Positions 8,264 to 53,335 of a stretch of DNA of 64,000 nt are shown one piece after another. The notes under the pieces are model-generated. The model ran no database searches. It had not been told where the DNA came from and saw only the letters and a list, made by a program, of their open reading frames with translations. The stretch covers positions 40,885-104,884 of the forward strand of contig JADFYJ010000007.1 of assembly GCA_015233115.1 (NCBI GenBank), read 5' to 3'. The stretch comes from Candidatus Omnitrophota bacterium (GTDB taxonomy: Bacteria > Omnitrophota > Gorgyraeia > Zapsychrales > Zapsychraceae). Position 1 is the first letter of the stretch. Every line of letters starts with the position of its first letter. A program made the position numbers and the translations under genes.

Positions 8264-8423
8264 GTAGTATGTAGCATGTCGTATGTAGTAAAAAAAATTG
8301 ATTTAAAAAATAAAAAACAAAAAAATGATAATTAAAAACCAAAAACTCATATTTCACGTTTTATATTTAAGCTTTTGTTTGTTTTTGTTTTTCTCTACAT
8401 ACTACATACTACGAACCACATAC
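8264..8423 (+). repeat. Inverted oligo-repeat pair (gtagtatgtagcatgtcgtatgtagta / ctacatactacatactacgaaccacatac) flanking an AT-rich spacer, with nested aaaaccaaaaac/gtttgtttttgttt arms
   Basis: The arms are reverse complements, read directly. They lie between the adaptor stop and the macB start. Confidence 0.7.
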
Positions 8424-8440
8424 TTATAAAATTGATACAT

Positions 8441-10411
8441 ATGAATACGATCGAAATTAAAAAAGTTAATAAAACTTATGGGACTGGCAAGATCGAAGTC
8501 CATGCTTTGCAGGATATTTCTTTGACGATCCAGCAGGGGGAATTTGTGGCGATCATGGGCGCTTCCGGATCTGGCAAGTCCACGCTGATGCATATTTTAG
8601 GCCTTTTGGACCGGCCTGATTCCGGCGAATATTTTCTCAATGGCCAGGAGGTCAGCAAGCTAACTGACCAAAATTGGGCTGTTTTACGCAACCAAAGCAT
8701 AGGTTTTGTATTTCAGCAATTTCATTTATTGGCTAGAATGAGCGCGTTCGATAACGTGGCCTTGCCATTGATTTACGGCGGAGACATGCAGTTAAAAGAT
8801 AATGCGCGGCTGCGGCTGATCGATGTTGGCTTAGAAGAGCGGATGAACCACAATCCCAATGAATTATCCGGCGGGCAGCAGCAGAGGGTGGCGATCGCCC
8901 GGGCCTTGATCCATGATCCATTGCTGATTTTAGCAGACGAACCAACTGGAAACCTGGATTCCAAAAGCAAGGAAGAAATTCTCGGTCTTTTTGAAAAATT
9001 AAATCAGCAAGGCAAAACTATTGTCATCGTGACTCATGAACCAGAAGTCGCGCGCCACGCCAAACGCGTCATTACTATGCGCGACGGAAAAGTGTTATCA
9101 GACATAACTTCAGCTCCACTAACTAAAGTTAAAATGACCAGCACAGCCCCTAATATCCCGCCTGCGCTTAAACCCGCAACAAAACAAAGCAGTATGAAAT
9201 TCCTGGATTATTCCCGGCAAGCTATCACCGCCATGATTGCTCATAAAATGCGCGCATTCTTATCCATTTTAGGAATTCTGATCGGCGTTGCCGCCGTAAT
9301 TGCCATGGTCGCGTTAGGCAGCGGAGCCCAGGAATCCATTGAGAAACAATTGGCGTCTTTAGGATCAAACCTTTTACTCGTTATGCCGGGATCATCCCAT
9401 GAGCATGGCGTATCTATGCAATCCGGCGCTAACACTAAATTTACTTTTCAAGATATTACGGCACTAAGTCAAGATTCGGAAAATATTGAACGTGTCAGTC
9501 CTGCAGTTTCCGGACGGACGCAAGTCGTATATGGTAGTAAAAACTGGAACACGTCCGTGGAAGGTTCTACCGCCAATTATGAACAGGTCAGAGCTGCCAC
9601 CCCTATGGCCGGTCGCTTTTTTACGGATGAAGAGGTCACCAGCCGCACCAAAGTTGTATTACTGGGAACAACCGTGGTTAAACAACTTTTTGATACAGAA
9701 GATCCTATCGGCAAAACCATTAAAATTAACCTCATCAATTTTCAAGTGATTGGCATTTTGCCCTCACATGGCGCAAACACGTTCCGTGACCAAGATGACA
9801 CGATGTTAGTTCCTATTACCACTGCCATGTACCGCTTGCTTGGCAAACAATATATTGATACAATCTACGTTCAAGCTCGGGGGCCACAGTTTGTTGATCC
9901 TGCGCAGGACGATATTGCCAAGATCATGAGTAAACAACACCATTTAGCTCCTAAAGATGAAGACAGCGCGTTTCAAGTTAGAAACATGAGTGATATGAAA
10001 GCCGCTTTAGAGTCCAGTACCAAGACTATGAGCATGCTCATTGGCGCGATCGCCGCGATTTCATTGCTGGTCGGTGGAATTGGAATCATGAACATTATGT
10101 TGGTTTCCGTTACAGAGCGAACCCGCGAAATTGGTTTGCGAAAAGCATTGGGTGCGAATAATAAAGATATTATGACCCAATTTCTAATTGAATCAATTTT
10201 GACCTCTTTAATCGGAGGGATATTAGGAATCATTGTGGGGACTGGAATTTCCGCGTTAATCACGATCGCGGCTGGCTGGGCGGTTAAAGTATCAATCATT
10301 TCGATGATCACCGCCACTTTGTTTTCCATGTTAGTTGGGCTTGTGTTTGGACTTTGGCCGGCACGGCAAGCATCTCGTTTAAATCCTATAGAAGCGTTGA
10401 GATATGAATAA
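8441..10411 (+). CDS. macB: MacB-type ABC transporter (fused ATPase and FtsX-like permease)
   Basis: Walker [10 protein letters not shown], the signature [15 protein letters not shown], and a C-terminal four-TM FtsX domain. The start is at MNTIEIKK; the track ORF extends upstream into the repeat. Confidence 0.85.
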
Positions 10412-11762
10412 AACTAAATTAACATTTATCTTTTTAATATTATTTTTTCTTTGTCAAAATAATATATCGAGAGCAGATCAACCTGCTCCGCAACAAATAG
10501 CAATTGTTCAGCAGTCCCTAAGTCTTAATGAAGCGATTCACTTTGCGTTGAAAAACAACCTCATCATGCGGTTAGCCAGGGAACGGATCAACGAAGCCAA
10601 AGGAAAAAGCACGTCCGGCAATTCTGATTTGTTGCCGCACATAGGCATAGAAGGGTATCAAATGAAAGTTCAGCGGTTTAATTTGCAAACCATGGGACTA
10701 CCCGGCCTTCTAGGGCCGTTCGACGCGTTTGATGCTCGTCTACAACTGGAACAACGGATCTTTGATTTGAGCGCCTTTTCTAAATCCAAAGCAGAAAACC
10801 TGGCGGTCGAAATCGCGCGTTATGGCGAAGATCTTGCTCACCGGCAGGTTATGACCCAAGCCATTATGGCGTATCTGAATGTTTTAAAGAATGCCGAATC
10901 GCTCAAAACCATTGATGAAAATATCAGCGTAGCCGAAAAATTTGTAAAACTTTCTGAACATCAACGGGCTGTCGGCATGGCCACTCAGGTTGATGAAGTC
11001 CGGGCAGAGACCCGTTTGGCGCAGGAAAAAGCGGCACGCGAAAAAATTTTATTTAATTTACAATCCGCGGATTTTAACCTGAAACGCGTGACTGGCATTG
11101 CCTTAGACTGCCCGTTACGCTTAACCGATACATTGCTATTTTTTGTCGAGCCTGCGTATCCGGTTCAAAAAACTCTTGATGAGGCATTCAATAACCGGGT
11201 AGAAATCACGATCGCGGAACAAAGAGTTGAGTATAAAAAATTAAAACTGCAGGAAGCTAAAAGCCTTCATCTGCCTAAGATATCATTAGTCGGTGATTAT
11301 GGAACATCAGGAGTTCGCATCAACCGGGACAAGCATGAAGTGGGAGAATTTGGCATCAAAGCCAGTTTCCCTATATTTGAAGGCGGAGCCATCGAAGGGC
11401 AGATCATGCAAGAAACCAGTATCAAGAAGCAGGAAGAAATGACCCGCGATGATGTGTCAATACAAATTGAAGAAGATGTCCGGTTATCTCTACAAATTCT
11501 TCAAACCAGCCTTCAAGCCGTATACGCGAATGACATTGCTCAAAAACTTTCTAGCCGTGAACTGGAATATACAAAAAATCAATATATCAATGGGCTGGAG
11601 GATAATTTAAAAGTCGATGCCGCGCAATCAGACCTTGCCCAAACCAAAGAAAACTATATAACCGCATTAGCTCAATATCATACCGGCCGGGTCAATTATT
11701 ATTCCGCGATTGGAAAATTAGAACAGTTCAGTCTTAATCAACCTGAGGTGAATCATGAGTAA
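10404..11762 (+). CDS. TolC-family outer membrane efflux protein
   Basis: Signal peptide and OEP repeats; overlaps the macB stop. Confidence 0.75.
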   Translation: MNKTKLTFIFLILFFLCQNNISRADQPAPQQIAIVQQSLSLNEAIHFALKNNLIMRLARERINEAKGKSTSGNSDLLPHIGIEGYQMKVQRFNLQTMGLPGLLGPFDAFDARLQLEQRIFDLSAFSKSKAENLAVEIARYGEDLAHRQVMTQAIMAYLNVLKNAESLKTIDENISVAEKFVKLSEHQRAVGMATQVDEVRAETRLAQEKAAREKILFNLQSADFNLKRVTGIALDCPLRLTDTLLFFVEPAYPVQKTLDEAFNNRVEITIAEQRVEYKKLKLQEAKSLHLPKISLVGDYGTSGVRINRDKHEVGEFGIKASFPIFEGGAIEGQIMQETSIKKQEEMTRDDVSIQIEEDVRLSLQILQTSLQAVYANDIAQKLSSRELEYTKNQYINGLEDNLKVDAAQSDLAQTKENYITALAQYHTGRVNYYSAIGKLEQFSLNQPEVNHE

Positions 11763-14218: not shown

Positions 14219-14233
14219 TAAAAGCAGTATGTA

Positions 14234-14270
14234 AATCCTTTCTAAATCCTTTCTAAATCCTTTCTAAATC
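14234..14270 (+). repeat. Tandem 11-bp repeat (aaatcctttct), about 3.4 copies
   Basis: Read directly from the sequence, downstream of the MFS stop. Confidence 0.8.
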
Positions 14271-14963: not shown

Positions 14964-14976
14964 AAGCGATTGATGC

Positions 14977-15108
14977 GGGCGATCAGGAGATCGCCCCTAC
15001 GAAGGACATAATGTCCGCGTAGTACTGGAGGCACCTGCGAGCAGCACAAAAATGTACATGATTTAAAAAAATAATCGTAATTTCGTAGGGGAGATCTCCT
15101 GATCTCCC
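14977..15108 (+). promoter_or_regulatory. GATC-rich double palindrome: hairpin gggcgatc-agga-gatcgccc + ctacgaa ... ttcgtag + hairpin gggagatc-tcct-gatctccc
   Basis: Two self-complementary 20-bp hairpins that are also near reverse complements of each other, with 7-bp complementary flanks. Four GATC sites fall within them. The spacer holds further small palindromes (ggacataatgtcc, atgtacat). The element lies between the HAD gene and the G1P dehydrogenase gene. Confidence 0.65.
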
Positions 15109-15150
15109 GTAACAAAATTATCGTTTTAAAAAACGAAAGAAAGATACCGC

Positions 15151-31548: not shown

Positions 31549-31917
31549 ATGCCAAATAAACGAATACTGATTGTTGATAATGATAAAACATTTTTATCTG
31601 AATTAGGCGAAACTTTAGAACTTAGCGGATATGATATGGTCGTGGTTGACGATCCGCGAAAAACTATTGAAATGGCAGATCTATATGATATAAGTTTATT
31701 TTTGCTTGATCTAAAAATGCCCGCTCTCACTGGTTTTGAATTGGCCCATGAATTAAACCATATTTCACGTTTTTCGCATATTCCTATAATCGCCATGTCC
31801 GGTTACTACAAAACTGAATACGAATCAATATTTGAAACTTGTGGAATCAGAAAATGTTTAAAAAAGCCTTTTAAACCATTGGATTTAATCACGCAAATTG
31901 AAACCATTTTATTATAA
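31549..31917 (+). CDS. Single-domain response regulator (CheY-like)
   Basis: Receiver-domain motifs (IVDND, LDLKMP). Confidence 0.7.
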   Translation: MPNKRILIVDNDKTFLSELGETLELSGYDMVVVDDPRKTIEMADLYDISLFLLDLKMPALTGFELAHELNHISRFSHIPIIAMSGYYKTEYESIFETCGIRKCLKKPFKPLDLITQIETILL

Positions 31918-31941
31918 ACAATATTAATCAATGAGGTCATC

Positions 31942-32382
31942 ATGGAAAACATTAAAAATGAGTTGGTTAAACTTCTTAATCAGGCTTTAGAATTAGAACA
32001 TGCCGCGCGAATCCAGTATCTTGCTCATGCAGAACTGATTAAAGGCTTAAACGCCGAAAAAATCATTGAACGTCTTACTGAAATTGCCGCAGATGAAGAC
32101 AAGCACGAAAAAAAAATCCGCAATCTGATAGGCAACTATCTCGGAGGAGAACCGTCAATGGCCCTGGCTGCTACACATCGCGCTACTGAGATGATTGAAA
32201 TTCTTCAGACCAATTTAAAAGACGAGAAAGACGCCATAAATTTTTATAAAAAAATTTATAAAACAATTACTGAAAATAAAGAAAATTTACCTTATGAATT
32301 CGAAACGCTGGAACATGAAATTCGGCATATTATTTTAGATGAACAAGAGCATGCCAGCGAACTTTCCGTTTTATTGGAATAA
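31942..32382 (+). CDS. Ferritin-like diiron domain protein
   Basis: Paired E...EH/ExxH motifs (LELEHAA, DEDKHEK, LEHEIRH, EQEHASE). Confidence 0.55.
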   Translation: MENIKNELVKLLNQALELEHAARIQYLAHAELIKGLNAEKIIERLTEIAADEDKHEKKIRNLIGNYLGGEPSMALAATHRATEMIEILQTNLKDEKDAINFYKKIYKTITENKENLPYEFETLEHEIRHIILDEQEHASELSVLLE

Positions 32383-32451
32383 ATTTAAACATATTAAAAT
32401 TATCACGAAGCCCAACGTTCGATCAATTCATTAATTTGAAAAAATAAACGC

Positions 32452-34179
32452 ATGGATCCCACACCCACAGAATTTAATATCCGCATCGCAGGTGAAGCCG
32501 GTCAAGGGATAGAAACCTTTGGCTCTGCTTTGTGTCATATTTATAAAAAATCCGGCTTCCATATTTTCGCCAACCAAGATTATATGTCCCGAATCCGCGG
32601 CGGTAATAACTATTTTCAAATTAGAGTATCCGAAGCTGAAATTTTTTCTTGCCGGGAAAAAATTGATATCTTGGTCGCGTTAGATCTGCCCAGCATCTCA
32701 CTTCATCAATCAAACTTGCATAAAAACGGAATCATTCTATTAGATAAAGCAAAATTTAATATGACTCAAAATGAACCCAATTACTTTGATATTCCTTTAT
32801 TTGCCCTAGCACAAAAAATGGGGGGAAGCGAACTTTATGTTAATTCCATCATGTGCGGCATCATGGCTTATATTACCTCAGCAGAACTATCCCTTTTGCT
32901 TAAAACTACGCGAATCATCTTTAAAGACAAAACCGAAGAAATCATTAATAAAAATATTCTAGCCGTCAAGGCCGGATTTGATTTTGCTCAAAATTATTAT
33001 AAAGGAAAACTATTTAAAATTAATCCATCTGTCACAATTCCTCACTTATTGATGAACGGAAATGATGCCATAGCACTCGGAGCGATCAAAGCCGGATGCA
33101 AATTTTATTCCGCTTATCCGATGTCACCATCAACCAGCATTATGACAGTTGTCGCCCATTATGCTAAAAAATTTAATATCATTGTGGAACAAGCAGAAGA
33201 TGAAATTGCGGCGGTCAACATGGTCATTGGCGCCTCATTTGCCGGCGTTCGCTCCATGACGGCCACTTCTGGAGGAGGATTTGCTCTTATGGCTGAAGGC
33301 GTCAGTTTAGCAGCCATGACAGAAACTCCCCTGGTCATCGTTGACGCTCAAAGGCCAGCTCCAGCCACTGGTTTGCCAACGCGGACTGAACAAGCCGACC
33401 TTAATTTCCTGATCCATGCCGGTCATGGGGAATTTGCTAAAATTATTTTGGCTCCTGGAACGATTGAAGAAGCATTTACACTAACGATCCGGGCCTTTGA
33501 GTTGGCAGAACAATATCAAATTCCAGTTTTTATTCTCACAGATCAGCATCTAGCGGATTCATATAAAGACATTGACAATTTGGAAGGAAGGAATCAAAAA
33601 ATGGTTCGACACATAATCTCCAAAAATGAATCTATTAATTTACTAAACTACAAACGTTACCAAATGACCGAAACAGGAATTTCCCCCCGCGCTATCCCAT
33701 CATGGATTTCTCAACCGATTTATGTGGATAGTGATGAACATACCGAAGAAGGACATATCACCGAAGACGCAGACATACGTCGAAAAATGGTGGAAAAAAG
33801 GCTTTACCTAAAAAATAAGGGACTGCGAAACGAAATTTTAAAACAAAAAGCTTTTCAGCTTGAAAATGCTGATCTGATTTTACTAGGGTTTGGATCCACT
33901 TTTGGTGTGATGAAAGAAGCGTGTGAAAAAATTTCAAATCATCGCGTAGGATTCATCCATCTATCCCAAGTATGGCCCTTTCCCACAGATGAAATATTGG
34001 AATATTTAAAAGGAGCAAAAAAAATATATACCATCGAAAATAATGCGACAGGACAACTGGCAGGAATTATCCGACAAGAAACTACCTTAAAAATTCATGG
34101 TTCTATTTTAAAATTTGATGGCAGGCCATTTAATTTAGATTTGGTTATTGAAATAATAAACAAGGCTTTCAACAAATGA
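32452..34179 (+). CDS. korA: 2-oxoacid:ferredoxin oxidoreductase subunit alpha (KorA-like, fused gamma/alpha)
   Basis: A 575-aa OFOR alpha architecture, co-transcribed with the TPP-binding beta subunit. Confidence 0.75.
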   Translation: MDPTPTEFNIRIAGEAGQGIETFGSALCHIYKKSGFHIFANQDYMSRIRGGNNYFQIRVSEAEIFSCREKIDILVALDLPSISLHQSNLHKNGIILLDKAKFNMTQNEPNYFDIPLFALAQKMGGSELYVNSIMCGIMAYITSAELSLLLKTTRIIFKDKTEEIINKNILAVKAGFDFAQNYYKGKLFKINPSVTIPHLLMNGNDAIALGAIKAGCKFYSAYPMSPSTSIMTVVAHYAKKFNIIVEQAEDEIAAVNMVIGASFAGVRSMTATSGGGFALMAEGVSLAAMTETPLVIVDAQRPAPATGLPTRTEQADLNFLIHAGHGEFAKIILAPGTIEEAFTLTIRAFELAEQYQIPVFILTDQHLADSYKDIDNLEGRNQKMVRHIISKNESINLLNYKRYQMTETGISPRAIPSWISQPIYVDSDEHTEEGHITEDADIRRKMVEKRLYLKNKGLRNEILKQKAFQLENADLILLGFGSTFGVMKEACEKISNHRVGFIHLSQVWPFPTDEILEYLKGAKKIYTIENNATGQLAGIIRQETTLKIHGSILKFDGRPFNLDLVIEIINKAFNK

Positions 34180-35033
34180 ACGTATCCGATTTACAATCTC
34201 ATGACGAAATTGCCTGGTGTCCAGGATGCGGCGATTTTGGAATTTTAAATGCCGTCAAAAAAGCCCTGGTTAAACACAACCGCGACCCAAAAGATATTTT
34301 ATTAGTTTCAGGCATAGGGCAGGCAGCCAAGCTTCCACACTATATCCGCTGCAATTGTTTTAATGGCCTGCATGGACGCGCGCTTCCTCCGGCAGTAGCC
34401 GCTAAAATTGTAAACCGGAACCTTACCGTTATCGTCACAACAGGTGAAGGAGATTGCTACGGAGAAGGGGGCAATCATTTTTTACATAATATTAGAAGGA
34501 ATGTTGATATTACAGTCATTGTTCATGACAACCACATTTATGGTTTAACTAAAGGCCAAGCCTCTCCCACGACAGACCTGGGATATCAAACAAAAATCCA
34601 AACTTCTGGTGTTATTGTGGAGCCATTTAATCCCTTAGAAGTCGCGATCGCTTTGGGCTGTGGTTTTGTGGCACGTGGATACTCCGCGGACTCCGATCAT
34701 CTGGCAGAACTTATTCTAGCGGGAATAAATCACCGAGGTTTTTCTTTAATCAATGTATTACAGCCCTGCGTTTCTTTTAATCATAAAAATACGTATGAAT
34801 GGTATTCAAAAAGAATTTATAAAGTAGATCAGGAAGCTGATTATGATGTCTCCAATAAATTTTCCGCTTACCATAAATGTGGTGAATGGGATGACCGCAT
34901 TCCCATCGGAATTATTTATAAAACCGAAAGAACCACTTATGAAGATCGAAGCGGGATCAATGAAAAACAACCTTTAGTGGACGAGATAATAAATAATATA
35001 AACATCGAAAATATACTCGATGATTTTATATAA
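34176..35033 (+). CDS. korB: 2-oxoacid:ferredoxin oxidoreductase subunit beta (TPP-binding)
   Basis: CPGCGDFG and GDG...E TPP-binding motifs. Confidence 0.8.
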   Translation: MNVSDLQSHDEIAWCPGCGDFGILNAVKKALVKHNRDPKDILLVSGIGQAAKLPHYIRCNCFNGLHGRALPPAVAAKIVNRNLTVIVTTGEGDCYGEGGNHFLHNIRRNVDITVIVHDNHIYGLTKGQASPTTDLGYQTKIQTSGVIVEPFNPLEVAIALGCGFVARGYSADSDHLAELILAGINHRGFSLINVLQPCVSFNHKNTYEWYSKRIYKVDQEADYDVSNKFSAYHKCGEWDDRIPIGIIYKTERTTYEDRSGINEKQPLVDEIINNINIENILDDFI

Positions 35034-35178
35034 TATGATCCCGCTACGGTCACTGGGTCGTGACCTTGCTTGAACAGCAAGCTTCGCGTTGCTCAGCTCC
35101 GCGGGATAAATTCGTGCGGCTGACTTGATGTCGCGATAAACGCTCCATAAGTCAGGCACTCATAATAAGGAGGTAAGT

Positions 35179-35520
35179 ATGTCACCATGTGATCCCAAAA
35201 CCGGCGTTTGTGAAGTTCCACAAAGCAGTTCTAGCCCAGCATCGTCTTGCGCTAGCAAATGCGCCTGCGGCAGTGAATCTTGCTGCACTGACCCAATCGC
35301 GTGTCAAACGAAAATGTTGACCTGCGCTTTTTGGGAAGCTAAAAAAGCCGTGATGGTGGATATTCTCAAATTAAAAATCCAGAAAAGCTGCGGCAAAAAA
35401 ATGGAAATGGCTGCTGATGCCATCGTGGAAGCTATGGAAGTCAAAAAAGATTCCATGATCGCAATGGCCAAAGCCAAAGAAGAATTCATGAATAAACTAA
35501 AAAGTATGTGCAAAGAATAA
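35179..35520 (+). CDS. Cysteine-rich small protein (14 Cys in 113 aa), function unknown
   Basis: Strong RBS aaggagg. N-terminal C-x-C-rich region followed by a Lys/Met/Ala-rich helical region. Confidence 0.55.
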   Translation: MSPCDPKTGVCEVPQSSSSPASSCASKCACGSESCCTDPIACQTKMLTCAFWEAKKAVMVDILKLKIQKSCGKKMEMAADAIVEAMEVKKDSMIAMAKAKEEFMNKLKSMCKE

Positions 35521-35528
35521 CAAAAATA

Positions 35529-35745
35529 GCATGTAGTATGTCGTATGTGGTATGTAGCAAAAACAAAAAACGTAGAAGAAAATTAATAGGCTGTCATTCC
35601 CGCGAAAGCGGGAATCCAAAAAAAAAATTATTTATTACTGGATCCCCGATTTAAACACTCGGGGATGACAAAACGAACTTTTCGACTTATTTTAAATTTC
35701 ACTTTCGTTTTTCTCGCTACATACCACATACGACATACTACATGC
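35529..35745 (+). repeat. Inverted oligo-repeat pair (gcatgtagtatgtcgtatgtggtatgtagc / gctacataccacatacgacatactacatgc) enclosing the double-hairpin element at 35592-35670
   Basis: Near-perfect 30-bp reverse-complement arms, read directly. Confidence 0.75.
35592..35670 (+). repeat. Double-hairpin repeat element, copy 1 (tgtcattcccgcgaaagcgggaatcca...tggatccccga...tcggggatgaca)
   Basis: Three copies share more than 85% identity in the hairpin modules. Hairpin 1 is tcccgc-GAAA-gcggga (GNRA loop); hairpin 2 is ccccga-N8-tcgggg; the outer tgtcat/atgaca closing pair is conserved. Confidence 0.8.
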
Positions 35746-35759
35746 TTTAAAGGAGTTCT

Positions 35760-36260
35760 ATGGATATCTACGATTATGCCATGCAATTAGAAAAAGAAGG
35801 CGAGGATCTTTATAAAAAATTTGCTGATACGACAAACGATCCGATGTTAACTAATATTTTTACTTGGCTGGCCCAACAGGAAAAACAGCACTATGACATA
35901 TTTAAAAAAATGAAAGAAGATCAGCCGATCCGTTTAGATCCGCCGGTTTCATTCATAAATGATGTTAAAAACATATTTTCTGAATGGAAAAAACAAAAAG
36001 TACCATCACTCGCCACTCAAGCACAGGCTGATGTTTACCGGACGGCGTTGACTGTTGAACAAAAAAGTATTGATCTTTACACTAAAGATGCGATTCTTAT
36101 TCATGAACCTGAAAAAGAAAAAATTTTTCTTCGTCTGGCGTCAGAAGAAAAAAAACATTTTGTCATAGTTGAAAATATTATTGAATTTATCAGTAAGCCT
36201 GAACACTGGGTGGAACACGCCGAATTCACCCATGATTTGGAAAAAGATTATTATTTATAA
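35760..36260 (+). CDS. Ferritin-like/rubrerythrin-family domain protein
   Basis: ExxH pairs (QQEKQHYD, EEKKHFV) on a four-helix bundle pattern. Confidence 0.5.
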   Translation: MDIYDYAMQLEKEGEDLYKKFADTTNDPMLTNIFTWLAQQEKQHYDIFKKMKEDQPIRLDPPVSFINDVKNIFSEWKKQKVPSLATQAQADVYRTALTVEQKSIDLYTKDAILIHEPEKEKIFLRLASEEKKHFVIVENIIEFISKPEHWVEHAEFTHDLEKDYYL

Positions 36261-36273
36261 AAAAGCGGTTTTT

Positions 36274-36347
36274 AGTTGTTGGTTGGTGGTTGTTGGTAAA
36301 AAATTCGATTCACTTTTCCAAAAACCAAAAACAATCAACCATAAACC
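36274..36347 (+). repeat. Inverted oligo-repeat pair (agttgttggttggtggttgttggt / ccaaaaaccaaaaacaatcaaccataaacc)
   Basis: G/T-rich arm and its A/C-rich approximate reverse complement, read directly. Confidence 0.6.
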
Positions 36348-36467
36348 AATATTTCCAAATTTATTTAATAAGTCTTGACGATTTCTAATTATGCGCAACA
36401 ATAGCATAATTAACATTTCGATGGATGATAGATGATGGCTTAACCACAAACCAACCGTATTTATCTG

Positions 36468-37430
36468 ATGAATCGCCCTTACCATAATCCGACAAATAAT
36501 TATAATCAGCGCCGTTCTATGCAGCGTCCAGCGTATCATCCGCCGGTTCGCAATTTAAGCGACGCCGAGAAAAAATTCATGAGCGGAACAGTCATTGATC
36601 CATGCCCACGGATCCGCTTAGAAGACGGCTCTGACAAACTCAGCATGCGCGCCATGGATTTGATTTGTCCGATCGGCATGGGACAGAGGGGATTGATTGT
36701 CGCGCCGCCCGGATCAGGGAAAACCACCTTTCTTAAAGATATTTGTCAAGCCGTCATTAAAAGCTGTCCACAAATCAAACTGTATTGCCTGCTGATTGAC
36801 GAAAGGCCGGAAGAAGTCACTGACTTTAAACGCGCGGTATCAGCAGAAATCCGCTCATCGTCTTCTGATCAGAGCTATGATCAACATGTGGCGGTCGCTG
36901 ATGAATTAATGAGGCAAGTGGTCAGCGAAGCAGGGAATGGAGAGAATGTGATGGTGTTAATTGATTCACTGACTCGTCTTTCCAGAGTCCATAACGCGGA
37001 GCAGCGTAACAGCGGCAGGACGTTATCTGGCGGCATGGATGCCCGCGCGCTTGAAGTCCCCAGACGTATTTTTGGTTCAGCCCGTAAAATCGAAAACGGA
37101 GGATCACTTTCCATTCTGGCTACTATTTTAATCGAAACCGGCAGCCGCATGGATGAAGTGATATTTGAAGAATTCAAAGGCACAGGGAACATGGAAATTG
37201 TACTTTCCCGTGAAATCGCTAACCATAGAATTTATCCAGCCATTAACATTAGCCGCAGTGCCACCCGCAAAGAAGAATTGCTTTTAAGCCCTGATGAGCT
37301 TGAACCTGTCCGCAATATCAGGCGTGCCTTAATCGGATTAAACCAGGTTGAAGCCGCCCAAACCTTGGTTGATATGCTTCGAAAATTTCCCACCAATAAA
37401 GAACTTCTGCAACGACAAAGTACAGAGTAG
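36468..37430 (+). CDS. rho: Transcription termination factor Rho, lacking the N-terminal OB-fold RNA-binding domain
   Basis: GQRGLIVAPPGSGKTT (Walker A), LIDERPEEVT, Q-loop and R-loop regions and a C-terminal GTGNMEIVLSR are all present. Only about 45 residues precede the ATPase core, against about 130 in canonical Rho. Confidence 0.8.
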   Translation: MNRPYHNPTNNYNQRRSMQRPAYHPPVRNLSDAEKKFMSGTVIDPCPRIRLEDGSDKLSMRAMDLICPIGMGQRGLIVAPPGSGKTTFLKDICQAVIKSCPQIKLYCLLIDERPEEVTDFKRAVSAEIRSSSSDQSYDQHVAVADELMRQVVSEAGNGENVMVLIDSLTRLSRVHNAEQRNSGRTLSGGMDARALEVPRRIFGSARKIENGGSLSILATILIETGSRMDEVIFEEFKGTGNMEIVLSREIANHRIYPAINISRSATRKEELLLSPDELEPVRNIRRALIGLNQVEAAQTLVDMLRKFPTNKELLQRQSTE

Positions 37431-37600
37431 AGAGTACAAAGTACAGAGTAAAAAACAAGACAAAATATTTTAAAAAATATAATTATAAAATCTAAAAATT
37501 TTTTTAAATTTCGATCCAAATCAACTTATTTGCTCACTCCAATTTAATCTATTTTTTTAATTTTCACTCTGTACTCTGCGTACTCTGCGTCTCTGTACTG
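37419..37600 (+). repeat. Inverted oligo-repeat pair (agtacagagtagagagtacaaagtacagagta / cactctgtactctgcgtactctgcgtctctgtactg) flanking a 110-bp AT-rich spacer; the left arm overlaps the rho stop
   Basis: Reverse-complementary gtacagagta units, read directly. Confidence 0.7.
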
Positions 37601-37683
37601 TATTTGTAACTCTTGACAGTCGCGGGTCTTTGGATATAATATTTGATATAAGCTATTTAAAACATTAACTTTAGGAGGGGATC

Positions 37684-37890: not shown

Positions 37891-37946
37891 GCTATAGCAT
37901 TTCGGACATTAGAAACGAGGGGCACAAAACTTAATAAGCTAGTTTA

Positions 37947-38018
37947 TAGTTGTTGGCTTGTAGTTGTTAGCTATCAAATTTTTTTCTCCAAACACCAAAA
38001 ACAATCAACCATCAACAA
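37947..38018 (+). repeat. Inverted oligo-repeat pair (tagttgttggcttgtagttgttagc / ccaaacaccaaaaacaatcaaccatcaacaa)
   Basis: Same unit family as 36274-36347. Confidence 0.6.
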
Positions 38019-38054
38019 TAAATATTTTACTGTTAAGTATTGTGTCCCCGTTAA

Positions 38055-39112: not shown

Positions 39113-39176
39113 GTCGGAAGTCAAAAGTCAGACGTCAGAAGAAAAAACAATAAACAAAAACCACCAAAACTAACAA
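39113..39176 (+). repeat. Composite element: gtcagaag-type plus caaaaacc-type repeats (copy 2) immediately upstream of the gene at 39181
   Basis: ggtcggaagtcaaaagtcagacgtcagaag followed by aaacaataaacaaaaaccaccaaaactaacaa. Same arrangement as 5287-5375. Confidence 0.6.
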
Positions 39177-40196: not shown

Positions 40197-40330
40197 TTTT
40201 TAAAAATTAATCTAGTAAGGCAGTGAAGGATGAGAAGAGAGCTCTGCTTATAACTACGACGAATAGGAGTAGTTATAGAGCGAGTGGCCGACCGAAGCAA
40301 CGCGGAGGCGCCAGAATCCTTGCCTGCCCA
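40197..40330 (+). ncRNA. tRNA-Tyr-linked 3' element: conserved hairpin (actac-GACGAATAGGAG-gtagt) + gcgagtggccgaccgaag + ggcgcc + duplicate of the last 17 nt of tRNA-Tyr + T-run
   Basis: Shares its core with 40559-40669. The stem shows compensatory changes and the loop is conserved. The 3' end repeats gaatccttgcctgccca. Confidence 0.55.
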
Positions 40331-40342
40331 TTTATAAATTTT

Positions 40343-40478
40343 GTAAGTGGTAAACGTGGCAAAGGCAGTAAAGGTGATTGAATGGCGATTCATGAATCGC
40401 CCACTAAAAAAATATCGTTTTTTCAATTATCTGTTTTTATTACCTTTACCTCGTTTACCACCTTTATCACCTTTACAA
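40343..40478 (+). repeat. Inverted oligo-repeat pair (gtaagtggtaaacgtggcaaaggcagtaaaggtgat / tacctttacctcgtttaccacctttatcacctttacaa) with a central perfect 18-bp palindrome ggcgattcatgaatcgcc (40384-40401)
   Basis: Read directly from the sequence; lies upstream of tRNA-Gly. Confidence 0.7.
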
Positions 40479-44028: not shown

Positions 44029-44044
44029 AATTATTGTCATTCCC

Positions 44045-44128
44045 GCGAAAGCGGGAATCCAAAAATAAATTATATTTTATTATTACTGGATCCCCGAATC
44101 AAACACTCGGGGATGACAACTTTAAGTA
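44045..44128 (+). repeat. Double-hairpin repeat element, copy 2
   Basis: tgtcattcccgcgaaagcgggaatcca...tggatccccgaatcaaacactcggggatgaca, near-identical to copy 1 apart from the spacer. Confidence 0.8.
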
Positions 44129-46746: not shown

Positions 46747-49700
46747 ATGAATTTAAAAAATTTTAAACAAACTCAGTTTTTCCGTCTCATTGCTTGCTGG
46801 ATTTTATGCAATTTTTTAATTGCATCTTTTATGCCGCCGCAAGGGGCTTGGGCGCAGACTGTTCTGAATTTGCCAATTCCAGGCACAATGCTGACAACTA
46901 CGCCAGCATATACGCCAATCATGGTAAAAGGTCTGCAGATTCACCCTGAAAACCCGCTGTTATTCGATTTTATTGTTGATACAGGCAAGTCCGGGCTTAA
47001 AGTAGATAGCTCCAATTTTAAAACCGAATCTCAAAAACTTATTAAATATTTTTTAGCTTCCCTGACTATCAAAGAGGAAAATTTATGGGTCAACTTATCG
47101 CCCTATGAAAAAAACCGGATTATGCCTAAAGATTTGAGTCAAACCGAACTCGGACGGGATATGCTGGCGCAAGATTATATTTTAAAACAATTAACCGCGT
47201 CTTTAATTTATCCTGAAAAAGAATTAGGGAAAAAGTTTTGGGACGCCGTATATTTAAAAATTTATGAAAATAGAAGAGAGAAAATAGAAGATAGACCAAC
47301 ACCAAAAAACAAATCGACAACAACGATCGCTTCTAATCTATCTTCTCCCGTCTATCATCTATTATCTGATAATTTAGACCTTCCAACCAACATATTGAGC
47401 AAAGTCTGGATCGTGGCAGATAAAGCTAAAGTGCTTGAAAAAAACAATACAGCCTATATTGTCGGCGCACATCTAAAAGTGCTTTTGGATACCGATTATT
47501 TGGCAAAACAAATGGCACCGGCATCCAAAAGCACAGCCCAAGAACAAATAGAGCCGCAAATCATGCGTCAAATCATCATTCCTGAAATCGAACGCGAAGT
47601 GAACGAAGGCGCGCATTTCGCCCAATTACGCCAAATGTTTCATTCCATGATCTTGGCCGCTTGGTATAAACAAACCATTAAAAATTCACTGCTTAATCAA
47701 GTGTATAGCAATAAATCAAAAACAAATGGCGTTCAGGTTGACGATCTTGCTATTAAAGAAAAAATTTATCAGCAATATTTAGACGCTTATAAAAAAGGTG
47801 TGTTTAACTATATCAAAGAAGATTATGATTCTGCCAACCAGCAAATAACCTCCCGAAAATATTTCTCCGGAGGAGAAGATTTCGCGATGTTAAAAAATGT
47901 CGAACGAGAAACTAAACTTGTAAAAGGAGATCAAAATCCGGACGTCCCAATCGGTGATACCGCCTTGGTATCCTTTGATATTCAAAAAGCTACAAACCCT
48001 GATCGTGCCCTGCTCAACACTTCAGAGTTAACCATGTCCAAATTCTCGACCACAGAAGAACCGGGAATCAAAATTATTGATCATATTATATTTCATTGGG
48101 AAGGGAAAGAAGTGCTGTTGCTTTTAAATGCTGCCCAAAAAATAACTAAAGGGTATAGTTTAATTTATGATGTTTTTATTGATCAAAAAGCAACAAAAAC
48201 TCTGACCGTTCATCTTCATCCAGTAAATGATAAAATGATTGTTAAATCGTTTGATTATATTTTTGAAGAAAACAAAGACTTCGAAAACGTGCTTCATCAC
48301 TGGCTTAACTCACAAATACACTTACCCTGGGATGGCTCTTTCTTTTCTAAATCAACAACTGAACCAACAACTGCGCCAACTCCAGAACTAACGATTTATC
48401 CTAAAACCATATTGCCTAAAGCAACACATCACTTTACATTACAGCATGAAGCGTCTGCTATATTCGAAGAGCAAGGAACAGAACATCCGCTTAAACTTAC
48501 TATAGAAAGAGCTGATGAACGCTATCAGAAACATGTATATTTTGTCAAAAAAGAAAATGGCCATGGTGAACAATCCTATACCCTTCCTCACGAGCCTGAT
48601 GTAGCGGACAGCATTCCGGCTATTTTTTGGAGATACATAGGAGACAGTGATGAAACCGAAATTGTTTTTAACAATAAATCGACGAACCCGTTTATCATGA
48701 CCCTCACAAATCCCATTGATCAAGCCATGATGGATTCATCAAACGATTATTTAACAGCTAACCTGCCATTTTCAATAGCGGAAAGCATTGTTTCGACTGT
48801 TTTAAAACAAAAAAATTTTACTTGGCAAACTAAAGACAAATTAAAAAACGAATTGTTAAATTACATTATCCAACACGTGAATTCAGATAAATTAATAACT
48901 TTTGTAGAAAATGTCCTGACCAATGCTTTAACTCAATATGTCAGCATACCAGAAATTAATCCGCAAAATCCAGCAGAAACTGAGCATTGGCGCATTAATA
49001 ATGAACGAAAACGTCAGATTTTTGAATTTCTCCAAGGGATAAATTCTAGAATTGTAAAAATCGGCCGTTTAAGTGATAAAAAAATTGCTGTCAGCCTTTG
49101 GATCACTCCCATTATTGCCAAACAAACTCAATTTGAACCATATTTTGCTGAAAATATTTTATGGTCCCAAGTGGCATCTGGTGTCGCAGAACAGACTATT
49201 CGTAACCTCCAAGATAGTTTTGTTAAATTAAAATTATTTGATATTAAAAACGACAAACTAACGCTTTCCACTATTAGTAAAAACGAACATGATGAAAATA
49301 TACGCATCTTAAATTTTGATTCCCCTGAAAACTCTGCTAAATTGGAGATTCGCTATAAAGATCCTGAGATGAATGGCAAAGGGGAGAGATCATTATCTTA
49401 CAAATTTATTGTCAAAGGCCAACCCCGAGCTATAAAATTTATTAAAATATTTTCAAATAAAGAAGAAGCAAGGCAAATATTTGACTACCAATATCTGCCC
49501 AATAGACCTACGGATAAAACGTTGAAGTTATTGACAACAGACATACTTTTTCATGGAAAAATGATAGACGCGGCTATGGCCGCTAAAGCAGAAATAAAAC
49601 AAATCAATGGCGGCATTGATCTCAATTCCAAAAATATGAGCATAGATATTACTAACCCTTTGACTATCTCAGGGTCTAAGCCTCTGATTAAATTTGACCC

Positions 49701-49788
49701 GGGTATGATCGCGGAATTTGAAGCTGGCGATTTTTCAGGGGTAACTTTTAAGATAATCAGCATCATACCCATTCAAAATACCCTTTGA
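46747..49788 (+). CDS. Large secreted hypothetical protein (1013 aa); the N-terminal 350 aa are paralogous to the ORF at 62723
   Basis: Signal peptide. The conserved block LIKYFLASLT..ENLWVNLSPYEK.RI.PK...QTE.GRD.LAQDY.LKQ.TASL.YPE is shared with the window-end ORF. Confidence 0.6.
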   Translation: MNLKNFKQTQFFRLIACWILCNFLIASFMPPQGAWAQTVLNLPIPGTMLTTTPAYTPIMVKGLQIHPENPLLFDFIVDTGKSGLKVDSSNFKTESQKLIKYFLASLTIKEENLWVNLSPYEKNRIMPKDLSQTELGRDMLAQDYILKQLTASLIYPEKELGKKFWDAVYLKIYENRREKIEDRPTPKNKSTTTIASNLSSPVYHLLSDNLDLPTNILSKVWIVADKAKVLEKNNTAYIVGAHLKVLLDTDYLAKQMAPASKSTAQEQIEPQIMRQIIIPEIEREVNEGAHFAQLRQMFHSMILAAWYKQTIKNSLLNQVYSNKSKTNGVQVDDLAIKEKIYQQYLDAYKKGVFNYIKEDYDSANQQITSRKYFSGGEDFAMLKNVERETKLVKGDQNPDVPIGDTALVSFDIQKATNPDRALLNTSELTMSKFSTTEEPGIKIIDHIIFHWEGKEVLLLLNAAQKITKGYSLIYDVFIDQKATKTLTVHLHPVNDKMIVKSFDYIFEENKDFENVLHHWLNSQIHLPWDGSFFSKSTTEPTTAPTPELTIYPKTILPKATHHFTLQHEASAIFEEQGTEHPLKLTIERADERYQKHVYFVKKENGHGEQSYTLPHEPDVADSIPAIFWRYIGDSDETEIVFNNKSTNPFIMTLTNPIDQAMMDSSNDYLTANLPFSIAESIVSTVLKQKNFTWQTKDKLKNELLNYIIQHVNSDKLITFVENVLTNALTQYVSIPEINPQNPAETEHWRINNERKRQIFEFLQGINSRIVKIGRLSDKKIAVSLWITPIIAKQTQFEPYFAENILWSQVASGVAEQTIRNLQDSFVKLKLFDIKNDKLTLSTISKNEHDENIRILNFDSPENSAKLEIRYKDPEMNGKGERSLSYKFIVKGQPRAIKFIKIFSNKEEARQIFDYQYLPNRPTDKTLKLLTTDILFHGKMIDAAMAAKAEIKQINGGIDLNSKNMSIDITNPLTISGSKPLIKFDPGMIAEFEAGDFSGVTFKIISIIPIQNTL

Positions 49789-49821
49789 CCCCTAATTACG
49801 AATTTTAATTCGTAATTGGGG
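49789..49821 (+). terminator. Hairpin terminator candidate (cccctaattacgaatt/aattcgtaattgggg)
   Basis: 15-bp inverted repeat immediately after the stop at 49788, followed by gttt. Confidence 0.55.
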
Positions 49822-50167
49822 TTTGACTTAATCCGACAAGTTTTCTTTTGCATTTATGCGATAATTTTGTATAATAACGATCATTTTTTTGATAGAGTAT
49901 ATATCCATTAACAAGTAATAATAATTAAATTAAAATTATATCTGGACAAGTCATAGACCTGTCCAAAAAATAGGACTGTTGAAAAATGCTTAGATACAAG
50001 GCATTTTCTGAATGAGCGCGGAGGCCGTTTTTCTGGATATGTTATTGAAACCGGCACTACGCTAAGATATTAAATATTTATATCTTTTGTCGACGTACAA
50101 TAGTTATATATTGATAGGCGAATGAAGAAATAACGCCGTAGATAAGCGTTTTGCAACAGTCCTTTAT

Positions 50168-50297: not shown

Positions 50298-50362
50298 CTT
50301 TTTCAACTTTGTACTCTCTACTTTGCGTACTCTGTACTTTAACCTTCAGAAAAGGATGTCCT

Positions 50363-52064: not shown

Positions 52065-53113
52065 AGTGGACAGGTTTAATTAATAAATACCGTGAATTTT
52101 TACCCGTCACAGATAAAACTCCGGTTGTCACTTTAAATGAAGGAAACACGCCGCTCATTTCATCTCCATACTTTTCTTCTCTAACCGGCATGGAAGTTTA
52201 TTTAAAATATGAAGGGCTTAACCCAACCGGATCATTTAAAGACCGCGGTATGACCATGGCGATTTCCAAAGCTAAAGAAGAAGGCGTTAAAGCGGTCATG
52301 TGCGCGTCAACCGGCAATACCTCTGCATCAGCGTCCGCTTACGCGGCGAGGGCAGGGATGAAAAGTTTTGTGCTGATCCCAGACGGCAATATCGCGCTCG
52401 GCAAACTCGCGCAAGCCATGATTCACAATGCCACGGTTATTGCCATCAAAGGCAATTTTGATCAGGCCCTGGAAATGGTGGTAGAGGTCACTAAAAAATA
52501 TCCAATCGCGTTAGTTAATTCGATCAATCCGTTCCGTATTGAAGGACAAAAAACCGCAGCTTTTGAAATTTGCGATTTTCTGGATGATGCGCCTGAGTTC
52601 CATGCCATTCCAGTCGGAAATGCCGGCAATATTACGGCCTATTGGAAAGGTTATAAAGAATATAAACAAGTTGGAAAATCAAAACAGCTTCCCAAAATGC
52701 TGGGATTTCAGGCCGCAGGTTCCGCGCCGATAGTACTTGGTCATCCGGTTAAGAAACCTGAAACCATTGCCACAGCGATTAAAATTGGCAATCCGGCCAG
52801 CTGGAAATTTGCTGAAGCCGCGCGCGATGAGTCCAAAGGTTTAATTGACATGGTCACAGACGATGAAATTTTGGAAGCTTATAAACTTTTAGCCAAATTC
52901 GACGGAGTTTTTGCTGAACCGGCATCAGCCGCATCCGTTGCTGGCATCATTAAATTGAATAAAAGCGGGTATTTTAAAGGCCAAAAAGGGCGTATCGTGT
53001 GCACATTAACCGGCCACGGCTTAAAAGATCCCAATATCGCGTTAAAATGCGTTGGTGAACCAATGGTCATTAATCCTGACATGAACGAACTTATAAAAAC
53101 TATCGGAATATAA
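52061..53113 (+). CDS. thrC: Threonine synthase
   Basis: PLP-binding SFKDRG motif and fold-type II PLP enzyme blocks. Confidence 0.85.
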
Positions 53114-53116
53114 AAA

Positions 53117-53335
53117 GTCACAAAGACACAAAGTCACAAGGTCACAAAGGGAAATAAAGATAATAAAAGCAATTAATAAAAAAAATGCAAACATTTAAAT
53201 TATTAAGAAGTCGCGTTTAGTTTTTCATAAAATTTAAACAAATACTTTTTTGAAAGCGAATATAGATTTAATTTTTGTTATTCTATTTTTCATTTCTTAA
53301 ACATTGTGACTTTGTGACCTTGTGTCTTTGTGACC
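53117..53335 (+). repeat. Inverted oligo-repeat pair (gtcacaaagacacaaagtcacaaggtcacaaagg / ttgtgactttgtgaccttgtgtctttgtgacc) flanking a 150-bp AT-rich spacer between thrC and coaB
   Basis: Reverse-complement arms with about two mismatches, read directly. Confidence 0.75.

Follow-up and report, generated by a model that had tools for sequence, protein, structure and literature searches.

Inverted pairs of heptanucleotide repeat arrays at gene junctions in a member of the Omnitrophota

Introduction

Many intergenic regions in a 64,000-nt stretch of the genome of a Candidatus Omnitrophota bacterium (assembly GCA_015233115.1, contig JADFYJ010000007.1, positions 40,885 to 104,884; hereinafter, the window) contain a short array of tandem units that is followed downstream by an array of the complementary units. 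The question raised by these paired arrays is whether they are terminators that insulate neighboring genes, substrates of recombination or footprints of a process that generates repeats, all of which were proposed in a first-pass annotation of the window. The pattern is a further example, in a new host phylum, of a repeat class that has been described and is functionally unexplained. It is very probable that the elements are heptamer modules of the type known as short tandemly repeated repetitive (STRR) sequences, and that the pairing of their arms is real for most of the pairs. The most likely reading of these pairs is that they are dispersed hairpin modules, selfish or neutral, rather than terminators or switches with a dedicated function. 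Repeats of this heptameric intergenic type have been on record since 1990, and neither an origin, including a reason for the 7-nt unit, nor a function has been established for them.

Short-period arrays and their pairing

About 22 short-period tandem arrays, most with a period of 7, were detected in the window with Tandem Repeats Finder. There are 11-13 arrays with period 7, 4-5 with period 8 and 4 with period 9, against ~0.25-0.5 per period in dinucleotide-preserving shuffles of 100-nt blocks. Intergenic DNA accounts for only 7.4% of the window, yet contains 19 of the 22 arrays. The modules are 25-45 nt long and consist of 3-5 degenerate 7-nt units (at times 8-9 nt), such as GTNGYAT, AGTATGT/CTACATA, GGTTGTT/CCAAAAA, ACAGAGT, GTCAGAA and ACCAAAA; the minority units have a period of 8 (AAAGTCAC, GTTACTCG) or 9 (ACCTTTACC, GTGATAAAG). 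Eight regions contain complementary pairs of arrays, three contain non-complementary pairs and approximately seven contain single arms. An assembly artefact was considered and rejected given that the arrays are short, imperfect and located within unique sequence.

The seven pairs and four single arms reported in the first-pass annotation are all found where it placed them. Its description of the arms as tandem units holds, with the correction that the units are not 8-10 nt long but mostly 7 nt (GTNGYAT, GGTTGTT/ACCAAAA, ACAGAGT, GTCAGAA). Its inventory, accurate as given, is incomplete, lacking the pairs H, J and K and the single arrays at 14232, 31397, 41298 and 54015. The array at 56519-56552, reported as a single arm, is genuine as an array and has a partner of the ACCAAAA family, with which it forms pair L (56520/56577). 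The elements of the window are as follows.

Pair A, 8262-8426, no strand assigned: GTNGYAT array in G-form (8262-8290) and C-form array (8395-8426), with a HlyD/MacA-like gene on one side and a MacB-like gene on the other; the spacer is first A-rich, then T-rich.
Pair B, 35528-35746, no strand assigned: 46-nt arms, 87% complementary, between a gene for a 113-aa protein and the rubrerythrin gene.
Pair C, 36267-36349, no strand assigned: GGTTGTT array at 36267-36297, 20-nt loop and CCAAAAA array at 36318-36349, located 3' of the rubrerythrin stop codon.
Pair D, 37415-37597, no strand assigned: ACAGAGT array that overlaps the rho stop codon (37415-37450) and the complementary array (37566-37597), upstream of a conserved TTGACA-16-TATAAT promoter (37613-37640).
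Element E, 37918-38051, no strand assigned: GGTTGTT-family arm at 37947-37973 and its complement at 37990-38019, between convergent genes.
Pair F, 40343-40476, no strand assigned: GTGGTAAAC-family array and its complement, period 9, in a tRNA cluster between tRNA-Tyr and tRNA-Gly; contains an inner GGCGATTCATGAATCGCC hairpin.
Pair G, 53114-53336, no strand assigned: AAAGTCAC array (period 8) and its complement, filling the whole gap between a PALP-enzyme gene and the DFP/CoaB gene that follows.
Pair H, 47266-47375, plus strand: purine-rich heptad array and its complement (47266/47337), in frame inside the open reading frame (ORF) at 46747-49788.
Pair J (non-complementary), 5285-5373, plus strand: AAGTCAG array, overlapping the stop codon of an AcrB-family gene, then an ACCAAAA array upstream of a YHS-domain gene (5285/5341).
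Pair K (non-complementary), 39113-39172, plus strand: GTCAGAA array following a stop codon, then an ACCAAAA-type array that ends 8 nt 5' of the next ATG (39113/39145).
Pair L (non-complementary), 56520-56612, plus strand: GTNGYAT array after the aspartokinase stop codon, then an ACCAAAA array that ends 2 nt before the start codon of a LeuA-like gene.
Single G-form array, 770-806, plus strand: GTGATAAAG/GTGGTAAAC family, between a CsoR-like repressor gene and a CusB-like gene.
Single array, 14232-14270, plus strand: perfect 11-nt unit, TAAATCCTTTC x3.5, G-free, upstream of a HAD hydrolase gene.
Single ATAACCT array, 31397-31424, plus strand: period 7, directly 3' of a response-regulator stop codon.
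Single array at 41298.
Single C-form array, 50306-50340, plus strand: ACTCTGT family (the complement of the pair D unit), between tRNA-Pro and a PilZ gene.
Single ACCAAAA array, 54015-54039, plus strand: 19 nt 5' of the phosphoglycerate mutase start codon.
Single pyrimidine-rich array, 58375-58408, plus strand: GTTACTCG, period 8, 22 nt 5' of the ValRS start codon.

The folding of the elements, assessed with RNAfold against dinucleotide shuffles, yields z-scores of -13.7 for B, -9.8 for G, -6.5 for F, -5.7 for D, -5.3 for E, -3.8 for H, -2.5 for C and -1.9 for A; folds with DNA parameters give z = -12.3 for B and -6.2 for G. A stricter test of the pairs employed an ungapped inverted-repeat score, with shuffles and composition-matched mirror repeats as the controls. 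By this measure, B (31), G (25) and F (14) are clearly above every shuffle, A (13, against a shuffle maximum of 12) and D (12) are marginal, and C and E do not reach significance as arm pairs. By strength, B, G and F rank as strong, D and A as moderate, and C and E as weak. Element E is a good hairpin despite its non-significant arms because of the outer stem GGGGCACAA/TTGTGTCCCC (37918-37940/38030-38051), which is the source of most of its z-score. Across the pairs, the arms are 73-88% complementary. The non-complementary combinations J, K and L are nearly unstructured, with folding energies of -0.9 to -9 kcal/mol and z-scores close to 0 (+1.1 for J and +0.6 for L). No Rfam family matches the window pairs at gathering or E-value thresholds. 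Hence the arrays exceed the chance yield of AT-rich low-complexity sequence in the shuffle test, and B, G and F clearly do so as pairs, in contrast to the arms of C and E. The recurrent geometry and the capacity to fold into long stem-loops, both of which had been proposed from inspection, are borne out.

Anatomy and orientation of the elements

In the two-array regions, the gene junctions are taken up by the arrays. The first array begins 0-7 nt from the upstream stop codon or overlaps it, and in most cases an A-run comes after it; a T-run comes before the second array, which, in eight regions, ends 2-27 nt 5' of the next start codon or tRNA. Several genes downstream of C/A-rich arrays have no Shine-Dalgarno sequence. 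The spacers range widely, from 3-20 nt in C, E and K to ~150 nt of AT-rich sequence elsewhere. Because a module and its reverse complement often bracket such an AT-rich spacer, the resulting element is a long imperfect palindrome; furthermore, the A-rich and T-rich halves of the spacer are roughly complementary to each other, so that each element as a whole can be described as a long degenerate palindrome. A comparison of the spacers, in which a core typical of transposable elements of the miniature inverted-repeat type (MITEs) was sought, produced only low-complexity matches, apart from a GTCATTCCC double-hairpin element that is nested in the loop of pair B. This element, with the layout GTCATTCCCGCGAAAGCGGGAATCC ... 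GGATCCCCGA(N9)TCGGGGATGAC, is present in three copies that are 81-91% identical (35588-35672, 44031-44118 and 58236-58314) and shows weak, sub-threshold matches to Wolbachia sRNA 46 in Rfam (E = 0.026 and 0.31).

The orientation of the arrays follows a simple rule. In 10 of the 11 two-array regions of the window, the first array contains more G than C and the second one more C than G (p = 0.012); the exception is pair G, with a purine-rich arm first. Among the 28 listed sources, which comprise the window together with loci from other phyla, the G-rich arm comes first by 24:4 in 32 inverted pairs (p = 2e-4). The rule is independent of gene direction because an inverted repeat reads alike on both strands. 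The ATAACCT array at 31397-31424 is the sole C-form array found in a post-stop position.

The genomic contexts of the pairs are diverse. Pair A lies between the macA-like and macB-like genes, which probably form one operon; C and D are each preceded by a stop codon and followed by a promoter-like site, E has convergent genes on its two sides, and F is in a tRNA cluster. With pairs found in every type of context, there is no exclusive link to operon boundaries. Pair H is located within a protein-coding gene. It corresponds to exactly 31 low-complexity residues that are extra in the 1013-aa ORF relative to its 47%-identical paralogue (62724-64000), so that arrays of this kind can add low-complexity insertions to proteins.

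Arms as dispersed copies of a few module families

Sequence comparison indicates that the arms are dispersed copies of approximately six module families and not independent products of slippage. The pattern GTNGYAT x3 followed by GTAG, with at most 2 mismatches, has 7 matches in the window compared to 0 expected; these matches come from three loci and 5 distinct arms, and GTAG-Y-AAAAA is the terminal sequence of each of the three G-form arms. The ACCAAAA module has 8 matches, which come from five loci and 6 distinct arms; among them, the 22-mers at 5342 and 56582 are identical. The pairs C and E are 84% identical across ~95 nt and are homologous copies of one element. Other recurrent families are ACAGAGT (pair D and 50306), GTGGTAAAC (770 and pair F) and GTCAGAA (5285 and 39113). 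Altogether, ~6 unit families are each represented at 2-6 loci within 64 kb, and the modules are spread across most of the longer gaps between genes.

The two arms of an element tend to belong to the same family: this is the case in 8 of the 11 two-array regions, compared to ~25% expected under random assortment of about six families (p ~0.001). In pair B, the GTNGYAT heptads are identical between the arms, including the variable positions, and the arms of pair G have the variant units GACAC and AAGG in common. In pair D, arm 2 has grown 9-nt units (GTACTCTGC) that are missing in arm 1, and therefore the arms also change independently through local duplication. Given the variant units shared by the arms in B and G and the homogenization of arm 2 in D, a combination of copying between arms and local slippage appears to have shaped the pairs.

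Comparison with relatives

A related contig (L001) encodes a Rho protein that is 79% identical, and a 68-aa protein that is 78% identical, to those in the window. At the junction between these two genes, the TTGACA/TATAAT promoter, the leader and the Shine-Dalgarno sequence align, and the ~170-nt pair D is absent from the relative. No other junction with arrays was open to comparison with a relative, and at this one the expectation that pairs are kept in related genomes fails; the best Rho relatives are only 79-81% identical and have no arrays. No arrays of this kind were found in 35 kb from two relatives. A 51% identical relative of the gene upstream of pair B, found on a 1-kb contig in a metagenome scan, ends in an ordinary terminator instead. 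These comparisons mark the elements as dispensable and of recent origin.

Similar arrays in other phyla and the link to IVP genes

A scan of species-representative genomes (596 Gb) with the pattern GTNGYAT x3 identified at least 116 loci. Since ~140 chance matches are estimated for 596 Gb, the number of loci by itself proves nothing, and the evidence lies in the internal features of the matches, namely extended arrays, partner arms, several matches per genome and other period-7 arrays. Among the matches listed, many genomes are matched several times and the matches run on into longer arrays. A reverse-complement partner is present within 1.2 kb of 20-25 of the 116 listed seed arms, against 3-7 partners (16/21) or 0-5 partners (17/21) in the reverse or complement controls. 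The 153 further arrays that lie apart from the seeds in these matches include 94 with period 7, and the 149 pairs of neighboring arrays include 32 inverted, 8 direct and 2 mirror pairs. The taxa represented are Omnitrophota, Planctomycetota, Verrucomicrobiota, Bacteroidota, Patescibacteria, Chloroflexota and others.

Several of these loci are informative in their own right. In a metagenome-assembled genome (MAG) of Omnitrophota (L018), four hairpins with short loops and 3-9 heptads per arm occupy successive gene junctions of one cluster, which is unannotated and, as read from the sequence, appears to be an ilvB-ilvN-ilvC-leuA cluster (ilv-leu type); three of the loops are essentially identical (GGGATTTTTAAAAGCG) and the fourth is a close variant. 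Two Prevotella MAGs contain the same TTAAGG...CCTTAA element with an AT-rich spacer, and the heptads differ between them in all units of both arms. Longer heptad arrays are found elsewhere, such as a 114-nt array in an Omnitrophota MAG (L053, 4246-4359). Arrays of up to 220 nt, including back-to-back arrays with different units, are present in a Bacteroidales MAG (L057, 2152-2329 and 3929-4258).

At one locus (L033), the arms enclose a 120-aa ORF that encodes a 23S rRNA intervening-sequence protein (IVP; PF05635, E = 1e-37). We examined 12 IVP loci (L033, L079, L097, L106, L110, L034, L074 and L120-L124), that is, all seven among the listed matches and five loci that were fetched via homologues of one such protein. 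In all 12, the IVP gene is bracketed by inverted short-period (mostly 7-nt) arrays, and in 11 of these, the G-rich arm comes first. At the 9 loci where the flanks were inspected, the cassette extends exactly from the stop codon to the start codon of the neighboring genes, which are rny-ymdB, nuoB-nuoCD and groEL-dnaJ. The heptad family at the IVP loci, GYATRTN, is the same as in the window arms of A, B and L. In orthologous rny-IVP-ymdB cassettes, this heptad family is kept while the IVP proteins have diverged to 79-84% identity. Neither an IVP gene nor a remnant of one was detected in the window by tblastn or with a profile built from six IVP proteins. Because the sampling favors loci with heptads and a single IVP subfamily, the association counts as a lead, not a result.

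Origin and possible role of the modules

On balance, we favor, with modest confidence, the interpretation of the modules as selfish or neutral DNA that is young and dispersed and whose presence at gene junctions is tolerated. Under this scenario, the arrays would be generated by replication slippage with a 7-nt step, the pairs would form by inverted duplication or by template switching between arms, and a copy-and-paste step of unspecified mechanism would account for the spread. The elements would survive only at sites of weak selection, and only when oriented such that the leader downstream is poor in G; on this view, the orientation rule would result from selection for a G-poor, C/A-rich leader before the start codon over a G-rich one. 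In mRNAs or tRNA precursors, the arms would pair in vivo and loop out the spacer, similarly to the stem of an intervening sequence (IVS) of 23S rRNA or to the hairpins of repetitive extragenic palindromic (REP) and Correia elements, and the paired stem would be a plausible substrate for RNase III. A stem that loops out the spacer, as in the rRNA intervening sequences, would therefore cause little harm, so the host might tolerate the elements, whose effect would not go beyond a modulation of how stable or how coupled the cistrons on either side are. Among the proposals made for the window initially, the footprints of a repeat-generating process fit best, considering the dispersed module copies, the in-frame pair H and the absence of pair D from the relative.

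Several observations weigh against this interpretation or limit its breadth. With respect to dispersal, no gene for a transposase, a REP-associated tyrosine transposase (RAYT), a recombinase or a reverse transcriptase is present among the genes of the 64-kb window, and no target-site duplications are visible at the ends of the elements. The spacers are unrelated in sequence between pairs. The conservation evidence comes from a single orthologous junction, in a relative with a 79% identical Rho. The persistence of the heptad family in the rny-IVP-ymdB cassettes suggests long-term maintenance of the arms, at least in those elements. Furthermore, the strong orientation rule and the exact stop-to-start placement could equally reflect a selected function at the RNA level.

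Such a function would imply that the arms pair in polycistronic transcripts and that the hairpin acts in the manner of REP or STRR hairpins: it would shield the upstream cistron against 3' exonucleases, serve as an RNase III site, or couple or uncouple the translation of the cistron that follows. The G-poor, C/A-rich leader would be hidden as long as transcripts read through and accessible once they are processed. The span of the arms from 0-7 nt after the stop codon to 2-27 nt before the start codon and the orientation rule, in the window and across phyla, speak for this possibility. So do the several downstream genes that lack a Shine-Dalgarno sequence after a C/A-rich array, and the non-complementary combinations, which are near structure-free (minimum free energy of -0.9 kcal/mol for 93 nt), as an accessible leader would require. 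Transcript stabilization or translational coupling has been proposed for STRR hairpins (PMC2670836), and translational control for TAACTGA repeats (PMC4679880). However, the antisense RNAs fold as well as or better than the sense RNAs (-41.6 vs -25.7 for A and -58.4 vs -40.8 for D), and thus the G-U test shows no sign of selection on the mRNA strand. In addition, pair D lies upstream of the promoter of the next gene and is absent in the relative, C and A are poorly complementary, pair H is inside a coding sequence, and the 9-nt units in arm 2 of D arose without matching changes in arm 1. Taking both sides into account, we consider selected RNA elements to be rather unlikely, albeit the main alternative.

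The link to IVP genes suggests two related possibilities that involve mobility. The broader one, which we view as unlikely, is that inverted heptanucleotide arrays are the stems of cross-phylum IVS-like cassettes that insert exactly between stop and start codons, even in essential operons (rny-ymdB, nuoB-nuoC, groEL-dnaJ), with the IVP gene as the autonomous cargo and the pairs with AT-rich spacers in Omnitrophota and Prevotella as non-autonomous forms. The stem would let the cassette be looped out of, or excised from, the transcript. If this were the case, STRR-type heptamers, rRNA intervening sequences and the unexplained IVP/Avd-like gene family would be one mobile system, and the G-rich-arm-first rule would be explained. 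The more specific possibility, which seems distinctly improbable, is that the window pairs are MITE-like, empty or decayed copies related to a mobile IVP-gene cassette, the autonomous form of which would be an IVS/four-helix-bundle gene between inverted heptad arrays inserting between stop and start codons. The inverted arrays at all 12 IVP genes, 11 of them with the G-rich arm first, the GYATRTN heptad family common to the IVP loci and to arms of A, B and L, the presence/absence difference from L001, the in-frame insertion of H, which resembles Rickettsia palindromic elements, and the nesting of another element in the loop of B all speak for it. Against it stand the lack of an IVP gene or remnant in the window, the mutually unrelated spacers and missing target-site duplications, the lack of any sign that IVP proteins mobilize anything, and the bias of a sample reached via the heptad pattern or via the homologues of one protein. 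With arms that differ between loci, no conserved core, no duplications at the ends and no insertion sequence (IS) in the window, the elements do not have the attributes of MITEs.

Insulating terminators, that is, long bidirectional hairpins that part transcription units, are an idea that suits only element E, which lies between convergent genes and folds well; C and D are also suitably placed, between a stop codon and the next promoter-like site. As a general explanation, it is very improbable. The 3' arm is not followed by a U-tract (the T-run lies within the hairpin), the loops are 16-150 nt and not 3-8 nt long, pair A is inside a macA-macB-type operon, several elements stand directly before start codons, and the L018 hairpins occupy four junctions of a single ilv-leu-type cluster. 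A scan of the window for consensus promoters and terminators returned counts no higher than in shuffles and is uninformative, and ordinary terminators are found elsewhere in the window, e.g., at 49790-49821. The proposal that the pairs are recombination substrates, such as invertible promoter switches (invertons) in which a recombinase flips the AT-rich spacer, draws on the inverted repeats around 100-150-bp AT-rich spacers directly 5' of genes in A, B and G. We assign it hardly any probability: no recombinase or invertase gene is present in the 64 kb, at least 6 different arm sequences would have to serve as sites, complementarity between arms does not exceed 73-88%, C, E and K have spacers of 3-20 nt (some just 16-20 nt), and promoter-like matches in the spacers are not above the shuffled expectation.

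Other features of the window

The window has a GC content of ~40%, and the plus strand holds nearly all of the genes. The gene content is ordinary and includes efflux pumps, PFOR, rubrerythrin, rho, tRNAs, homoserine dehydrogenase, aspartokinase, a LeuA-like enzyme and ValRS; IS elements and Y1 transposase genes were not found in the 64 kb. The Rho homologue (36468-37430), which is 100% identical to a MAG protein in NCBI, is short (320 aa) and contains the ATPase domain PF00006 alone, without the N-terminal RNA-binding domain. The best 120 homologues are all 285-376 aa long, and the best homologues with a named source all come from Omnitrophota except for one labelled Verrucomicrobiae. Omnitrophota as a phylum may thus possess a Rho without the usual primary RNA-binding site. 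In the relative L001 (7152-10984), an AsmA-family gene overlaps the rho start; in the window (30651-36260), ~5.8 kb separates the two genes, and this block contains response regulators, ferritin-like genes, PFOR subunits, a Cys-rich 113-aa gene and rubrerythrin. The region 5' of the Cys-rich gene (35033-35178) is a GC-rich leader with complementary ends (ATCCCGC ... GCGGGAT) that contrasts with the AT-rich intergenic DNA elsewhere and has no match in Rfam.

The window contains additional repeats. The final 20 nt of tRNA-Tyr (GAATCCTTGCCTGCCCATTT) recur 124 nt downstream of the tRNA (40198-40340), a layout that resembles the att duplication of a small element, either integrated or decayed. One GC-rich inverted repeat without tandem units (14970-15115; arms at 14970/15082 of 34 nt, 88% complementary, 78 nt apart; fold z = -10) is located between a HAD hydrolase gene and an Fe-ADH gene. 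Another inverted repeat, likewise not made of tandem units (49972-50163; arms at 49972/50138 of 26 nt, 85% complementary, ~140 nt apart; fold z = -5.2), directly upstream of tRNA-Pro and with no match in Rfam, may be a small RNA gene. Finally, a 19-nt inverted repeat (5750-5836) with 95% complementary arms (TCAGGTCTTTGTCCATGCT / AGCATGAACAAAGACCTGA), the second of which overlaps the start of a MazE/AbrB-type antitoxin-like gene (5821-6039), may be an operator or a leader hairpin.

Comparison with known repeat systems

Several classes of repeats were considered and rejected. CRISPR arrays are incompatible with two-copy inverted repeats and with the absence of cas genes. Integron attC sites do not fit because the arm ends have no R''/R' cores (RYYYAAC ... 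GTTRRRY), the neighboring genes have housekeeping roles and no integrase gene is present. Protein-binding repeats of the HutP or TRAP type were rejected because the UAG-N4 spacing fits one family and the units of the other families are unrelated, and arrays of three-frame stop codons because most units contain no stop codon. The likeness to telomere-like repeats is a mere coincidence. Arrays of this kind can be mistaken for terminators, CRISPR-like repeats or regulatory RNAs, which calls for caution in annotation.

REP elements and the bacterial interspersed mosaic elements (BIMEs), as well as Correia elements, are dispersed intergenic hairpin repeats, often located in operons, that are transcribed and affect mRNA stability or are cut by RNase III. 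REPs are single palindromes of 35-40 nt with a conserved sequence that are mobilized by RAYT, and Correia elements are characterized by fixed terminal repeats of 26 bp together with TA duplications. These repeats of enterobacteria and Neisseria provide a working analogy for the RNA behavior of the window pairs. Unlike REP and Correia elements, the window arms are heptad arrays of several families, without a detectable RAYT or target-site duplication; the single arms are not self-complementary, as the z-scores close to 0 of the non-complementary combinations demonstrate. As in the IVS of 23S rRNA, complementary ends form a stem around a loop (B, G, F and D); unlike the IVS, the window elements are located between protein-coding or tRNA genes and not in rRNA, and lack an IVP ORF. 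Pair H shares with the Rickettsia palindromic elements the presence of a palindromic repeat in frame within a protein-coding gene. Those elements are, however, one conserved sequence family of 100-150 bp, unlike the repeats in the window.

The excess of 7-nt units, the restriction to intergenic DNA, the dispersed families, the orientation rule and the eight inverted pairs all place the window arrays among the intergenic heptanucleotide simple sequence repeats (SSRs) and STRR sequences. The first-pass annotation considered the pattern not to be a standard feature class; annotations indeed ignore such arrays, but the literature describes them (PMC4692102, PMC2670836, PMC4679880). Heptanucleotide repeats have been characterized as the most abundant long SSRs in many prokaryotes, with polymerase slippage as the explanation for the 7-nt step (Mrazek 2007, as summarized in PMC4679880 and PMC4692102). 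The cyanobacterial STRR sequences, as presented in the papers that cite the original description, consist of 7-bp tandem units of a few families in intergenic DNA (Mazel 1990, cited in PMC4692102 and PMC2670836). They can form hairpins between co-transcribed genes such as hupS-hupL, and the roles in transcript stability or translational coupling that have been proposed for them are not proven (PMC2670836). The window differs from STRR in unit sequences and phylum, and the paired geometry around a long spacer is atypical of the STRR descriptions.

The TAACTGA arrays of Beggiatoaceae, cyanobacteria and Bacteroidetes consist of 2-6 copies, are intergenic and G-poor, and end a few nt before start codons (MacGregor 2015, PMC4679880); cold-shock proteins bind heptamers (MacGregor, PMC4679880). 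The ACCAAAA arrays of the window match these arrays in being G-poor, in their fixed orientation and in their location near the start codon. Unlike the window, the TAACTGA genomes contain a single unit and almost no inverted pairs, with one case reported (PMC4679880).

The closest parallels are the (GGGAATC)n repeats of Xanthomonas and the (GGGGAYT)n repeats of Nostoc. A Xanthomonas genome contains ~185 arrays, mostly of ~4 units and almost all intergenic (Rehm et al. 2015, PMC4692102), and 70-75 convergent array pairs per genome form inverted repeats (PMC4692102). In both Xanthomonas and Nostoc, the G-rich array is found on the coding strand where it follows an ORF and on the non-coding strand where it precedes one; the arrays vary in length and sequence between close relatives, and no function has been found for them (PMC4692102). 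The window shares with these repeats the 7-nt tandem units, the intergenic location, the inverted pairs and the orientation rule; it differs in having at least 6 unrelated unit families, no G-quadruplex formers, long AT-rich spacers and a host from the Omnitrophota. To this class of repeats, the present analysis adds the phylum Omnitrophota, with several co-existing families in one window, and the indication that the arms are dispersed copies. It also extends the orientation rule known from Xanthomonas to the window and to loci of many phyla, and the inverted arrays that bracket every IVP gene examined offer a concrete route to the question of the origin of these repeats.

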